Under the pieces are notes generated by a model. It saw only the letters and a list, made by a program, of their open reading frames with translations. It ran no database searches and was not told the origin of the DNA. Shown here piece by piece: positions 27,924 to 32,000 of a stretch of 32,000 nucleotides of DNA. The position numbers and the translations under genes were made by a program. How positions within the stretch are numbered: position 1 is the first letter of the stretch; each line of letters begins with the position of its first letter. The stretch covers positions 1,500,001 to 1,532,000 of the forward strand of contig CP001848.1 of assembly GCA_000025185.1 (NCBI GenBank), given 5' to 3'. The DNA comes from Pirellula staleyi DSM 6068 (GTDB taxonomy: Bacteria; Planctomycetota; Planctomycetia; Pirellulales; Pirellulaceae).

Positions 27924-30900
27924 CTAGCCCAGCAAGCTGGTGCTGTACTTGATGCGGGCAGCCACACAAAGTTCGACGATTCCATCGCGGTAGGTGATTA
28001 GCCCCGGATGGAAGAACTTCTGCGCGGTGACAGGTCGAAAGCCTTTGAAGGCTTTCTCGACAGCATCGATAGCGCCGAGCAAGAGCCCGCGCTTCTGCTC
28101 GAGTGCGGTCGGGTTCACCGGTTTTCGGTTCTGCTCGATTTCAAAGTCACGCACCCCTGTCTGATAGGCCTCGAGCAGCTTGGTGAAACCGGTGGCGCCC
28201 GGCTTTGCCCAGCCACCTTCGCGAGTTTCTGCTTCACTCATCACGCGTTGCCAAACCCGACCATCGAGAACGATGTCCGCCGGCTTGGGAGTCCACATGC
28301 GAGTCGGTGGATTCTTGGCTTCAAAGAGCCGCTGACAAGCAGCGCGAAGGGCTTCGGCGACGATCTTCTCGGCTGTCATTGCCGACGCTACAAAGTTTCG
28401 GCGCAGCTGATCATCGGGCGATGCGATCAGTTCGCTCACCAGTCGGCTGATCACCATCTCGCGGAGCTGGTTGACCTCTGGTTCCAGTTGGCGCTTCTCA
28501 GGCTCGCCGAAATTGAGGTTATAGTCGCGGAACATACCAGCTTCGATCTTGCTGGGAAATTCGAGCAACTTGCATTTGACGTAAGGGGTCGTGATTTCAT
28601 ACGCATCCCACAGGCGCGTGATCTCTGCAGTGCGTGCGTCGCGCTTCCGCTTCTGATCGATCACGGCTGCTTCAACAGCTTTCTCGAGCACATCCTTCTT
28701 AGCAAGTTCGAGCGCTTCCCCTTCGAGCCCGGGGAAAGCCTTGTAGTCGATGTACCTCGAGCGAGTTTCTGCGGCCGAATCGCGACGCTCACCCGCCAAA
28801 CGCCACCACTCAAACAAGAAGGCTTTCATGCCCGAGTGCTCGGTCGTTCGATCGTTGGCAACTGGCTCGATGTCGTTGATTTCCGACTGCAGCGTTTCGA
28901 GCGCTGTCACGAGCGCGGTCGAGGCTGCGATGCAAGCTTCGTTGTCATCGGGGTTGGCATCGGAGTAAGCCTGGCGTGCTTGTTCGTAGGTGGCGAGAGC
29001 ACCTTCGAGATTCGGTCGGCTGTCGTACCAACCAGCGGCAATCGCTTGCTTATGCACTTCCTTCCAGCCCGCAATGCTGAGGTCGACTAAATCGGCGCGC
29101 CACGCGGGATTGTAGACAATGCTCTTGTCGCGGCCGACAATTTTATCGCGGACCCATTCGGCTCCCTCGGCGATTTTTTTGCCCGCTTTGCCGATGATAC
29201 TTTCGCCGAACGTTTCTTGATCTTCCCCTTGTTCGTCGCCGAGAATACCGCCCCCCTTGAGCGCCATGTATTCGCGAAGCAGCTTGCTCGACGTTTGAGG
29301 ATGATCGATGTCGGTGCGACCCAGCCCCATGTTCTCGAGGTGCCCAATCGCCCAGGCATCACGCTCTTTCATCGCCAGGTGACAGATCGCCACCTTGGCA
29401 TATTTCGAGCTGAATTTCATCACTTCCACCTGAGCGCGGCGAAGTGGGGGGGGACCAGCAGCATCGGCAATCAGCTTGGCAGCCTTCGCCGCATCGGACC
29501 AGTTGATGCCGGTGATGAAAGCGGTGGTGCCGATACTGATCACCGTTCCTGCGGTCGAAAGTCCTGCGCCGATGGGGGAGGCGACGACCGAGAGTTCGGT
29601 TGCTTTGCCAGCGGTTTCCAGAGCCGAGCTGACAGCCTTGAGAGCCGATTCAGCGAGCGCGATTTTTTGTTCGCGAGCCAGTCGAGCCAGCGGCAACAAA
29701 GCGGCGCTACGAGGATCGGTCTTGGCACCTTTCTCGAGCACTTTCAGGTTCAGCGTGTTCTTGAAGTAGTAGCCTGCTTTGGCCACTTCGAGCAGCATAT
29801 CTTTGCCCGACACCACAGCGCCGAGAACAGGGACCCAGTCGGAAGCGAAACCGAGACCAGCGCCGACCAGACCGTTCACGCAGGTGACGATCGCTTTGTT
29901 ACGCTCGAACTCGAGGATCTTCTCTTTGACAGGATTGTCTTTGAGCTCTTCGAGTTCCATGGCCGATTCGCCACTCGAGAGCCCTTCGGCACCTGCACCG
30001 AGCATCGAGTTGGTGAGGGAGATCCCTTTGGCAAAGGTCCCCATCACTTCCATCGCTTGCTTGAATTTCTCGTTATGCTCGCCGAACTTTTCTTTGAGAA
30101 AATCGATACCCGACTCGGCAATGCCGACGACGGTTTCGACCGTCTCTGTTGTTTCGGAGAGTGACTTGAGGGCGTTCTCGGCTTCTTCGATTCCCTTTTC
30201 CGCTTCGATTTGCGCGGTGACCGATTTGTAGAGCGCGACCTCTTTCACCACATCGTCGGGCCACAGCGCTTCGGGAATATTTTTGTAAACCGTGCTGACG
30301 ATCTCATCGATGGTGGCCCCTTTCGCCTGCAAGGCGCGCTTGCGCTCGGCACATTCGGTGATCGCCTTTTCCATCTTCTTGAGCTTGTCGGACTTCACCA
30401 GCGTCCCGGAGCTTCCTTCGGCAATCGTGTTGGCGAGGTAGAAGTTTTCGGCATCGGTGTCGGTGTCGAAACCATACTCTTTGTCCTCGACGATCACGAC
30501 GAAGTCGAACAGCGCTTTGTGCTCTTCTTCTTTCTCGGTCGCAAACTGCTGGGCGAGCACTTTCTCGCGTTCGATTTCGACCTGAGCTGCTTTCGCGAGA
30601 ACGATTGCCTCTCCGAGCAGCGCGATACCGGCGTCGTAGTCGAACTCATCGGCCTTGGTCATTGCCAGGTCGAACTTGGCCATGATCTCGGCCCCTTTAC
30701 CGGGGGCTGATTCCTTTTCCTTCAAACGTTCGCCGAGCAACTTGAAGGGATGGAATTCGGAGTTGGCTTTGCGCCAGGCAGTCCGCTTTTCTTTGTCGTT
30801 CTTCTTCGGCGCGGTTTCCACCGGCGCATCTTCGCGAACCGGCTGGGGACGCTTGGCTTCTTCGAGTTGCTGACGGACCGAAACAAGTCGTTCGTAGTCA

Positions 30901-31100
30901 TCGCGGCCCAGCACGCGGCGCTCGAAGTCGGGACGCTTCTCGCTCACGTGCGGGCTGTAATCTTCGATGCTCCGCTCGAGGCGTTCTTTCTCCCACTCAA
31001 GCCGATCGACATCGACCACCTTTTCCACTTTGCCGGAGGGGGGTGGCGACATGCCAAGCGCGAGGGCGAGTCCCTTGGGTTGTTCTACTGTGACTGACAT
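27924..31100 (-). CDS. Large hypothetical protein (1058 aa): charged helical N-terminus, central Gly/Ala-rich hydrophobic core, duplicated C-terminal module
   Basis: Continuous 1063-codon ORF. ATG at 31100 (MSVTVEQPKG) has GGGAG 8 nt upstream, so I prefer it over the TTG at 31115. No signal peptide is visible. Hydrophobic segments are NGLVGAGLGFASDWVPVLGAVVSG and LSVVASPIGAGLSTAGTVISIGTTAFITGINW. I recognised no enzymatic motif. Confidence 0.8.
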   Translation of the reverse strand: MSVTVEQPKGLALALGMSPPPSGKVEKVVDVDRLEWEKERLERSIEDYSPHVSEKRPDFERRVLGRDDYERLVSVRQQLEEAKRPQPVREDAPVETAPKKNDKEKRTAWRKANSEFHPFKLLGERLKEKESAPGKGAEIMAKFDLAMTKADEFDYDAGIALLGEAIVLAKAAQVEIEREKVLAQQFATEKEEEHKALFDFVVIVEDKEYGFDTDTDAENFYLANTIAEGSSGTLVKSDKLKKMEKAITECAERKRALQAKGATIDEIVSTVYKNIPEALWPDDVVKEVALYKSVTAQIEAEKGIEEAENALKSLSETTETVETVVGIAESGIDFLKEKFGEHNEKFKQAMEVMGTFAKGISLTNSMLGAGAEGLSSGESAMELEELKDNPVKEKILEFERNKAIVTCVNGLVGAGLGFASDWVPVLGAVVSGKDMLLEVAKAGYYFKNTLNLKVLEKGAKTDPRSAALLPLARLAREQKIALAESALKAVSSALETAGKATELSVVASPIGAGLSTAGTVISIGTTAFITGINWSDAAKAAKLIADAAGPPPLRRAQVEVMKFSSKYAKVAICHLAMKERDAWAIGHLENMGLGRTDIDHPQTSSKLLREYMALKGGGILGDEQGEDQETFGESIIGKAGKKIAEGAEWVRDKIVGRDKSIVYNPAWRADLVDLSIAGWKEVHKQAIAAGWYDSRPNLEGALATYEQARQAYSDANPDDNEACIAASTALVTALETLQSEINDIEPVANDRTTEHSGMKAFLFEWWRLAGERRDSAAETRSRYIDYKAFPGLEGEALELAKKDVLEKAVEAAVIDQKRKRDARTAEITRLWDAYEITTPYVKCKLLEFPSKIEAGMFRDYNLNFGEPEKRQLEPEVNQLREMVISRLVSELIASPDDQLRRNFVASAMTAEKIVAEALRAACQRLFEAKNPPTRMWTPKPADIVLDGRVWQRVMSEAETREGGWAKPGATGFTKLLEAYQTGVRDFEIEQNRKPVNPTALEQKRGLLLGAIDAVEKAFKGFRPVTAQKFFHPGLITYRDGIVELCVAARIKYSTSLLG

Positions 31101-31129
31101 CGTTCTGACTCCCAATAAATGTTGGCGGA

Positions 31130-32000
31130 CTAGCCCAGGGCGGCGGCGATTTCTTTGAGTTTGCTACGAAGTGGACCGGTGATCTGCGTCGAGGGGACGA
31201 ACTCGTTTCCATCGAGGTTCTTCATCACCTCGTTGGAGTCGACGAACTTCGAGAACTCGGTCATCGTGGCGCGTGCCTTCTTCACCAGCGTATCGCGGCG
31301 CGTGAGGTCGCTCTCGTTGAGGATGTTGTCGAGCTGCTCGTCGAGATCGACATTCAGCTGCGCGATCACGGCATCGAGCTTCTTGAGCGCGGCCTTCATC
31401 GGGCGGAGCATCTCGGGATGATCGGCATAGGTCTCGCGGAACTTCTCTTTCAGCGTGGTCATCGAAGCCAAAGCACTCCGCTTGGTGGCGATGAATTCGA
31501 TGCGGGCTTTGCCGAGTTTCATCACCGAAACGTTGGCGTGTTCTTCCGGTTTTGTGGGCGCGGGGCCAGGACCTGGAGGTGGTGGTGGCGGCGGCGCGGT
31601 CGGTGGAGCGGGCGCGTTTTCGTCGACCGATTGCTCGTTGCCGGGTGGTGGAGGTGGTGGCGAAGTCGGTGGTGCCGGGACCTCGTTGGGGACCTTGGCG
31701 AGCGCTTCTTTCACCTTGCTCTCGAGCGTGCGATAGGTGCCGATGGCCGTGGGAAAGTCGGCTCCTTTCTCTTGCGTGGAAGCGGCAGCCAAGAGGGCGA
31801 TCAGCTCGTCCTTCATCTCGGGACTGGCAGCGACCGCCGCTTTCACTTGGGGATAGACTGCCTTCTTCAGGTCGGCACAAGCGGTTTGCAGTTTCTCGGC
31901 GGCAGCGAGAGCTTCTTTGACCGACGACTCGGCGAGCCCCAGCAAGGTGAACGCTTGATTGATCTCTTTGCTTTGAGCGAGTACGCCAGCCTCTTTGGTG
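31130..32000 (-). CDS. Helical protein with two polyproline tracts (5' end outside window)
   Basis: By hand translation the frame stays open to the window edge (..TKEAGVLAQSKEINQAFTLLGLAESS..), so the track start at TTG 31945 is probably internal. Tracts APPTSPPPPPPG and PPTAPPPPPPPGPGPAP lie at 31541-31681. The stop is 14 nt upstream of the region preceding the 1058-aa gene start. Confidence 0.75.
   Translation of the reverse strand, partial: TKEAGVLAQSKEINQAFTLLGLAESSVKEALAAAEKLQTACADLKKAVYPQVKAAVAASPEMKDELIALLAAASTQEKGADFPTAIGTYRTLESKVKEALAKVPNEVPAPPTSPPPPPPGNEQSVDENAPAPPTAPPPPPPPGPGPAPTKPEEHANVSVMKLGKARIEFIATKRSALASMTTLKEKFRETYADHPEMLRPMKAALKKLDAVIAQLNVDLDEQLDNILNESDLTRRDTLVKKARATMTEFSKFVDSNEVMKNLDGNEFVPSTQITGPLRSKLKEIAAALG

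Follow-up and report, generated by a model that had tools for sequence, protein, structure and literature searches.

A 32,000-nucleotide stretch of the chromosome of Pirellula staleyi DSM 6068 (contig CP001848.1, positions 1,500,001 to 1,532,000 of the forward strand), called the window below, ends in two minus-strand genes, A and B, which may encode the two parts of an effector module associated with type VI secretion (the type VI secretion system, T6SS). Gene B lies at 27924–31100 (minus strand) and encodes 1058 aa plus the stop. Its product is predicted to be all-helical, belongs to a family restricted to Planctomycetota and is a putative T6SS cargo effector. The open reading frame (ORF) of B spans 27924–31115 on the minus strand, and the ATG at 31100 that gives the 1058-aa protein agrees with the N-termini of its homologues. 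Only the 3′ part of gene A, residues 293–581 of 581, is inside the window (31130–32000, minus strand), and its reading frame at 31130–31999 is open up to the window edge. This part encodes helical repeats, a proline-rich linker and a C-terminal helical domain, and the conserved N-terminal domain lies beyond the edge.

We completed A from the Logan contig L001, which is near-identical to the window and carries the full gene for 581 aa at L001:749-2494. Upstream of A in this contig are 510 bp of noncoding DNA, and beyond them lies the end of an unrelated same-strand gene, the product of which has a hydrophobic stretch at its C-terminus. The unit thus comprises these two genes and no more. An earlier note on this DNA had correctly described two closely spaced, co-directional minus-strand genes, the upstream one running past the window. 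Its suggestion that the module might be larger upstream did not hold, since the L001 extension ends the unit at A. The stop codon of A is at 31130–31132, and the A–B spacer, read directly from the sequence, is 29 nt (31101–31129, minus strand). The gap of 14 nt given earlier reaches only as far as an in-frame TTG at 31115. The GGGAG reported before the ATG is present at 31109–31113 as a Shine-Dalgarno-like motif, 8 nt ahead of the start of B. The 3′ neighbour of B is not a small gene but a convergent WD40 gene 79 nt away.

Conservation of the gene pair and fusions in relatives

The A–B pair is kept in Pirellulales and Gemmatales amid unrelated flanking genes, which differ wholly between the pair loci. 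An A-like gene is directly upstream of B or a B-like gene at L001/L002, L003, L004, L005, L006, L011 and L037, of which L011 and L037 are more distant pairs, and the pair of L038/L039 is split by a 416-aa gene. Same-strand gaps between A and B are short in L004, L005 and L037 (30–36 nt) and in L011 (60 nt), and longer in L003 and L006 (114–192 nt). Wherever sequence upstream of a B-like gene was available, an A-like gene was present as its immediate upstream neighbour, one gene further upstream or as a fusion, which agrees with the single two-gene unit proposed beforehand. The two genes are thus co-conserved in relatives, and the lack of co-conservation that would have spoken against a joint unit was not found.

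Fusions were seen in three lineages, where the N-terminal domain of A (~125 aa) heads B-like proteins (P0024, P0026 and an ORF of L007). P0024 is 33% identical to the window B over 955 aa (E 6e-129), and jackhmmer with its N-terminal 125 aa recovers the N-terminal domains of A proteins. The family is patchy and rare. Close homologues of B form 10 clusters among 5.8 billion proteins, and B loci occur in 2 of 185,579 species-representative genomes, one from Gemmatales and one from Pirellulales. A cultured carrier of a B-like gene is Pirellulaceae bacterium SH501 (P0032, protein XZE32863.1).

Two observations concern individual loci. The A-family protein P0021 of L009 (GCA_040880645.1, JBBDHZ010000028.1) is labelled 'Candidatus Paceibacterota' in its source record; this contig is probably mis-binned, because all other taxonomically labelled family members are planctomycetal. 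Five Uma2-family endonuclease genes (L003 11262–12615 and 19403–20928) surround the A–B pair and rpoC in L003.

Protein A

Proteins of the A family are about 430–750 aa. A begins with the conserved ~125-aa N-terminal domain, after which come linkers rich in proline whose length varies, helical repeats and a C-terminal domain that is likewise helical. The N-terminal domain has the motif VKKGKPR.F ... YKKG ... SDGFE. The N-terminus of A (MGDKDEDKVDEK...) is hydrophilic with no signal-peptide-like hydrophobic stretch, and the N-terminus of B (MSVTVEQPKG...) is also hydrophilic. Both were judged by eye from the sequence, with no predictor used, and on this reading the absence of signal peptides stated earlier stands. 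Neither A, 11 A homologues nor the N-terminal domain alone gave a significant match in Pfam or NCBIfam.

The polyproline tract that had drawn attention to A is real. It covers residues 396–445 (31541–31690, minus strand), and a second proline tract sits outside the window. The tract is not conserved in homologues, however. It is missing at that position in the other 10 sequences of the family alignment A2 and is a variable linker found in this orthologue only. Polyproline runs also occur in actin regulators of the BimA, ActA and formin-like kinds, and a weak NCBIfam match to BimA covers the proline tract of A (17 bits against a cut-off of 600). We considered a role of A as an actin regulator and dropped it, since the tracts vary or are absent in homologues and the BimA match is driven by composition. 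Unlike those regulators, A and its homologues gave no WH2 or FH2 match in Pfam, a library that covers both families.

Protein B

B has a mass of 118 kDa. Its earlier description as highly charged and helical is borne out by 30% charged residues and an all-helical prediction. Pfam, NCBIfam and PHROG scans gave nothing significant for A or B, and PDB sequence searches with single sequences and profiles returned compositional matches only. An exhaustive profile search found 145 distant representatives of B, many of 1300–1900 aa (family range 1000–1900 aa), and all those looked up are labelled 'hypothetical'. A Pfam scan of 30 long B relatives found zero domains. A further protein search with a profile of the distant relatives returned the known set again and nothing additional, and locus scans for B in viral and metagenome contigs gave no matches.

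A first AlphaFold run on full-length B with a 10-sequence alignment modelled the core poorly (predicted local distance difference test, pLDDT, 65.6). It was replaced by a second run (m1516de0a7c40) on residues 225–790 with a 63-sequence alignment, which gave an all-helical model with a pLDDT of 81 and a predicted template modelling score (pTM) of 0.61. The model has four helices of 31–44 residues across residues ~390–548, mostly of good confidence. Profile coverage together with this model places the conserved core of B at residues ~385–625 (29226–29948, minus strand), which is the region most widely common to the 145 relatives.

Two Gly/Ala-rich segments of low charge lie within the core. Segment 1 (residues 403–435; 29796–29894, minus strand) is a candidate membrane-inserting hairpin, and segment 2 covers residues 495–532 (29505–29618, minus strand). 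Both were placed by hydropathy and family comparison. The 19-residue Kyte-Doolittle mean of B peaks at 1.5, at residues 403–430 and 503–532. Across 63 relatives, both segments have the lowest charge (about 10%) and the highest hydrophobicity of any part, and they reach values of at least 1.6 in 23 of the 63. The hydrophobic core described in the earlier note therefore stands as two segments kept at low charge throughout the family, but it is modest in the window protein.

The C-terminal half of B contains two homologous helical modules of ~110 aa (hhalign probability 95.8%, E 6.6e-9). Copy 1, with the motif W..W..K.AIAAGWYD ... H.GM, covers residues 665–790 (28731–29108, minus strand) and was modelled with pLDDT mostly above 90, the lowest 10-residue block being 86. 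Copy 2, located by hhalign against copy 1, covers residues 935–1050 (27951–28298, minus strand). Some B relatives have additional copies.

The residues retained in broad alignments of B are mostly Gly, Pro, Ala, Trp and Tyr, and Arg and His occupy single positions that are nearly invariant. There is no set of conserved polar catalytic residues, which argues against an enzyme. This agrees with the absence of a recognisable enzymatic motif noted before, as neither protein has a Pfam or NCBIfam domain. Foldseek, proposed at the outset as a check, gave no significant match in PDB or BFVD for either B model; the best PDB match of the pLDDT-81 model had an E of 0.2. The modelled all-helical fold of B has no known homologue, and both proteins remain uncharacterised as first described, with no family match by sequence and no fold match for the B models. 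The proposed likeness of the pair to translocators and pore formers is retained in part. A membrane-active role fits the model and the low-charge segments, but pore formation finds no support in homology or fold.

Tape-measure proteins typically have long helices with hydrophobic stretches rich in Gly and Ala. B could be a structural part of an injection machine and not a toxin, that is, a tape-measure-like or tube-lumen protein which is expelled on firing and forms a conduit through a membrane, and A would then be the chaperone for its assembly. A long B-like protein (P0037) matches the tail length tape measure family PHROG 167 (E 6.7e-12), a phage tape measure protein is the top BFVD match of the B core in Foldseek (E 0.014, probability 0.84), and the fusion gene of L036 directly follows the tube gene hcp. 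We regard this explanation as improbable, since the window B, A and P0024 have no PHROG match, tblastn searches of 50,697 phage records with B and P0037 were empty, and the 63-sequence B alignment aligned with lambda gpH and T5 Pb2 at an hhalign probability of <1%. No relative was found in viral contigs, and A-family genes are also paired with cargo that is clearly not tape-measure-like. The canonical T6SS has no tape measure. A phage origin of the window B was likewise rejected, because it has no PHROG, tblastn or profile match and there are no phage genes in the window. B is thus not the tape-measure protein inside a prophage that the earlier note had considered.

Neighbouring T6SS and PAAR genes and alternative cargo

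A Pfam scan of the 32 kb agrees with the earlier note that no secretion-system or phage genes are visible in the window. The secretion context that it could not see was found beside relatives, where T6SS genes and PAAR genes stand next to A or B genes at L036, L011 and L021; the window locus itself has no such neighbour. P0024, an A–B fusion, begins 338 nt past hcp on the same strand in L036. The hcp gene scores 57.6 bits in Pfam against a cut-off of 23.5, and upstream of it are tssH/clpV (TIGR03345, 1297 bits against 885) and tssA (TIGR03363, 189 bits against 161). The T6SS cluster of L036 also has sheath-like domains, and a 164-aa gene overlaps the end of the fusion gene. The gene order in L011 is an A-like gene, a B-like gene (P0037) and, 30 nt downstream, a PAAR gene (PF05488, E 1.7e-16). 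In L021 an A gene is found together with a PAAR gene (E 6e-21) and genes for two large, unrelated proteins.

In a 1059-aa ORF of the L036 T6SS cluster (2468–5647), partial TssB-/TssC-like domains and a full TssA occur together with a long linker of acidic, proline-rich 'DPELAALLGGGD' repeats, and this ORF is either an unusual fusion or an assembly artefact. L021 encodes a 249-aa eukaryote-type RGS-domain protein on the opposite strand (15658–16410, minus strand), between the A-linked cargo genes and the PAAR gene.

A scan for the N-terminal domain of A found 22 metagenome loci. At the several loci with readable genes downstream, none of the partners is B-like, and BLAST comparison of some of them showed little relationship among most. 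An 842-aa partner in L008 (11541–14069) ends in an OTU-like Cys-protease motif, DGNCLFHC...HYWH, which Pfam misses and which phmmer matches to OTUD3 with an E of 8.6e-4. The 1125-aa partner in L012 (2104–5481) has N-terminal ankyrin repeats and a PMT_C2 domain, which resembles the C2 domain of Pasteurella multocida toxin and, at 28.9 bits, scores just over the Pfam cut-off of 27. The N-terminal domain of A heads an 1837-aa protein in L015. A third uncharacterised family of ~1000 aa occurs in the A loci with non-B cargo (L016 15361–18504, L021 12527–15490, L019 1711–3369 and L026 10746–11264).

Ser/Thr kinase genes lie a few kb upstream of four A loci (L004 3340–5229, L016 6691–8331, L021 1879–6135 and L038 1610–5905), one of them fused to STAND NTPase and FGE-sulfatase domains. 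These neighbours may only reflect how common such kinases are in planctomycetes.

A conserved upstream gene with variable downstream partners resembles polymorphic toxin systems, and in L036 a small gene overlaps the end of the fusion gene. The A–B locus could accordingly be read as a classical antibacterial toxin with a neighbouring immunity gene. We consider this very unlikely, because A is fused to B-like proteins and an immunity gene is missing. Fusion to the N-terminus of B-like proteins would not be expected of A if it were an immunity protein. B is followed by the convergent WD40 gene and not by a small one, and the small ORFs downstream in L003 and L036 have no homologues at the other loci. 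Moreover, the cargo domains (OTU-like, ankyrin and PMT_C2) and the neighbouring RGS gene are of eukaryote type.

The same neighbourhoods bear on another explanation, that the two proteins are not secreted but act inside the cell as a scaffold or in the manner of a cytoskeleton. Their long helical bundles and proline-rich linkers would then organise membranes or protein complexes in the compartmentalised planctomycete cell, and the T6SS and PAAR neighbours of a few relatives would be coincidental. The best, non-significant Foldseek matches of B are bundles of the F-BAR, talin, HIP1R and alpha-catenin type. A scaffold would also be compatible with a window that has no secretion genes, with the missing enzymatic motif and immunity gene, and with the lack of T6SS genes at most loci. 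Even so, this explanation is rather unlikely. Same-strand adjacency to hcp/clpV/tssA (L036) and PAAR (L011 and L021) was found at three independent loci, and the family is patchy and rare. A is also paired with unrelated large OTU-like, ankyrin and PMT_C2 proteins, and such partners fit swappable effectors and not a housekeeping scaffold.

A proposed T6SS-linked two-part effector module

Judged from the sequences, it is somewhat probable that A and B form a single operon for an effector module of two parts, which would be linked to a T6SS or a related contractile injection system. An N-terminal module that is either split or fused, swappable giant cargo, occasional adjacency to hcp, clpV or PAAR, and N-termini that do not resemble signal peptides together point to a T6SS cargo effector with a loading partner. 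A start without a signal-peptide-like stretch, as in both A and B, would fit a T6SS substrate. A would be the delivery or loading partner of the module. Its conserved ~125-aa N-terminal domain may attach the module to VgrG, PAAR or Hcp of the spike or tube, its proline-rich tracts would serve as flexible linkers, and its helical C-terminal part might hold the cargo. B, which exceeds the size of the Hcp lumen, would be one of many alternative large cargo proteins paired with A-family genes. Once delivered, B would most probably act non-enzymatically by inserting into or binding the membrane of the target cell.

Our reading of A and B as a T6SS module is one of guilt by association, and several results weigh against it. 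T6SS or PAAR genes were seen at just 3 of some 30 distinct A or B loci, many of which are on short contigs, and the PAAR and Hcp sequences of L011, L021 and L036, used as queries against all retrieved loci, found no more copies. Neither the 32-kb window, which covers a small part of the ~6.2-Mb genome, nor L001 has a T6SS, VgrG, Hcp or PAAR gene. A has no match to the Pfam/NCBIfam profiles of the T6SS adaptors DUF4123, DUF1795/Eag and DUF2169, and B has no sequence or fold match to any known effector, colicin, translocator or other toxin or pore-forming family. The hydropathy peak of the window B is below the classical transmembrane threshold. Finally, no conserved immunity-like gene follows B, the small downstream ORFs of L003 and L036 having no homologues in other loci.

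T6SS and PAAR-type genes make up perhaps 1–2% of a genome, as a rough estimate. Therefore, a chance origin of three such loci among ~30 is unlikely, although the sample is small and this is our own rough estimate and not a computed statistic. The absence of a conserved immunity gene after B means that an antibacterial role is not indicated. Together with the eukaryote-type cargo domains and the nearby RGS-domain gene, it gives a hint of eukaryotic targets, which is speculation at this stage.

A more specific proposal is that the N-terminal domain of A is a new, Planctomycetota-specific T6SS marker or loading domain, comparable to MIX, FIX and RIX of Proteobacteria, which flags swappable giant cargo including B. 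We put this forward tentatively and give it well below an even chance. The B family would then possibly be a tape-measure-like, membrane-inserting cargo, with the OTU-like and the ankyrin plus PMT_C2 proteins as other cargo. If this were true, free-living planctomycetes would inject effectors into eukaryotic cells, for example those of grazers or algal hosts.

The type of system, a T6SS effector with a loading partner and swappable cargo, is already known, and both protein families appear to be undescribed in Pfam, NCBIfam, PHROGs and PDB. To our knowledge, the T6SS of Planctomycetota is almost unexplored, and none of the phylum's effectors has been described. If the T6SS link is true, the N-terminal domain of A, present at at least 22 metagenome loci with differing cargo, would be a simple sequence handle for the effectors of this phylum, and the eukaryote-type cargo domains would point to interactions with eukaryotic cells. 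For a family of 1000–1900-aa proteins like B, with no annotation or structural match, even a basic functional assignment would fill a real gap. The idea is directly testable, as a cultured carrier of a B-like gene exists in strain SH501.

Comparison with known systems

T6SS cargo effectors that use an adaptor or a marker domain include the 1085-aa VasX of Vibrio cholerae, for which VasW is the adaptor, as well as the MIX, FIX and RIX effectors. The A–B module resembles them in that B is large, has no signal-peptide-like start and is encoded just past its partner gene. Relatives of A and B lie beside hcp, clpV or PAAR, the conserved N-terminal domain of A is joined with many C-terminal or downstream cargoes, and B has a possible membrane-active helical region. 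Unlike the known effectors and adaptors, A and B show no similarity to described effectors, to DUF4123, DUF1795 or DUF2169, or to marker domains in Pfam/NCBIfam. A is also far larger than known T6SS adaptors and can be fused to its cargo. The loci differ further from those of known T6SS effectors in having no immunity gene and in being found in Planctomycetota only.

Helical pore formers such as colicin, the T domain of diphtheria toxin and the translocators of type III secretion systems share with B an all-helical build with low-charge segments in a core of amphipathic helices. In contrast to them, B has no Pfam match, no PDB match in Foldseek with E <0.2 and, in the window protein, a hydropathy that stays short of a transmembrane segment. 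The helices of B (31–44 residues) are also far longer than those of a compact colicin-type bundle. Tape-measure proteins are similar to B in their long helices and Gly/Ala-rich segments, as well as in the PHROG 167 match of P0037 and the weak BFVD match. B differs from them in lying outside a prophage, in having no viral homologues and no PHROG match, and in showing no profile likeness to gpH or Pb2.

Other features of the window

The window is a planctomycete-type chromosome region of ~58% G+C that also carries PSCyt2/PSD1, DUF1501, WD40, RND and MacB efflux genes. A PSCyt2/PSD1–DUF1501–WD40 trio (23018–27844, plus strand) converges on gene B. Homologues of the same trio lie just upstream of the gene in L014 and L015 that fuses the N-terminal domain of A into an 1837-aa protein, which may represent retained synteny or a functional link. 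A 1060-aa ORF at 693–3875 was considered as a paralogue of B and rejected, as it encodes a DUF7133-HEAT-cytochrome c protein. An 847-aa ORF (20315–22858, plus strand) is Arg- and Leu-rich, with no Pfam match and no obvious features. Two efflux systems lie back to back at 4602–18371 (minus strand). One is of the RND type (HlyD-type fusion protein, AcrB and OEP), and the other is a MacB-type ABC system made up of OEP, FtsX/MacB, an ABC ATPase, HlyD and a second FtsX/MacB.

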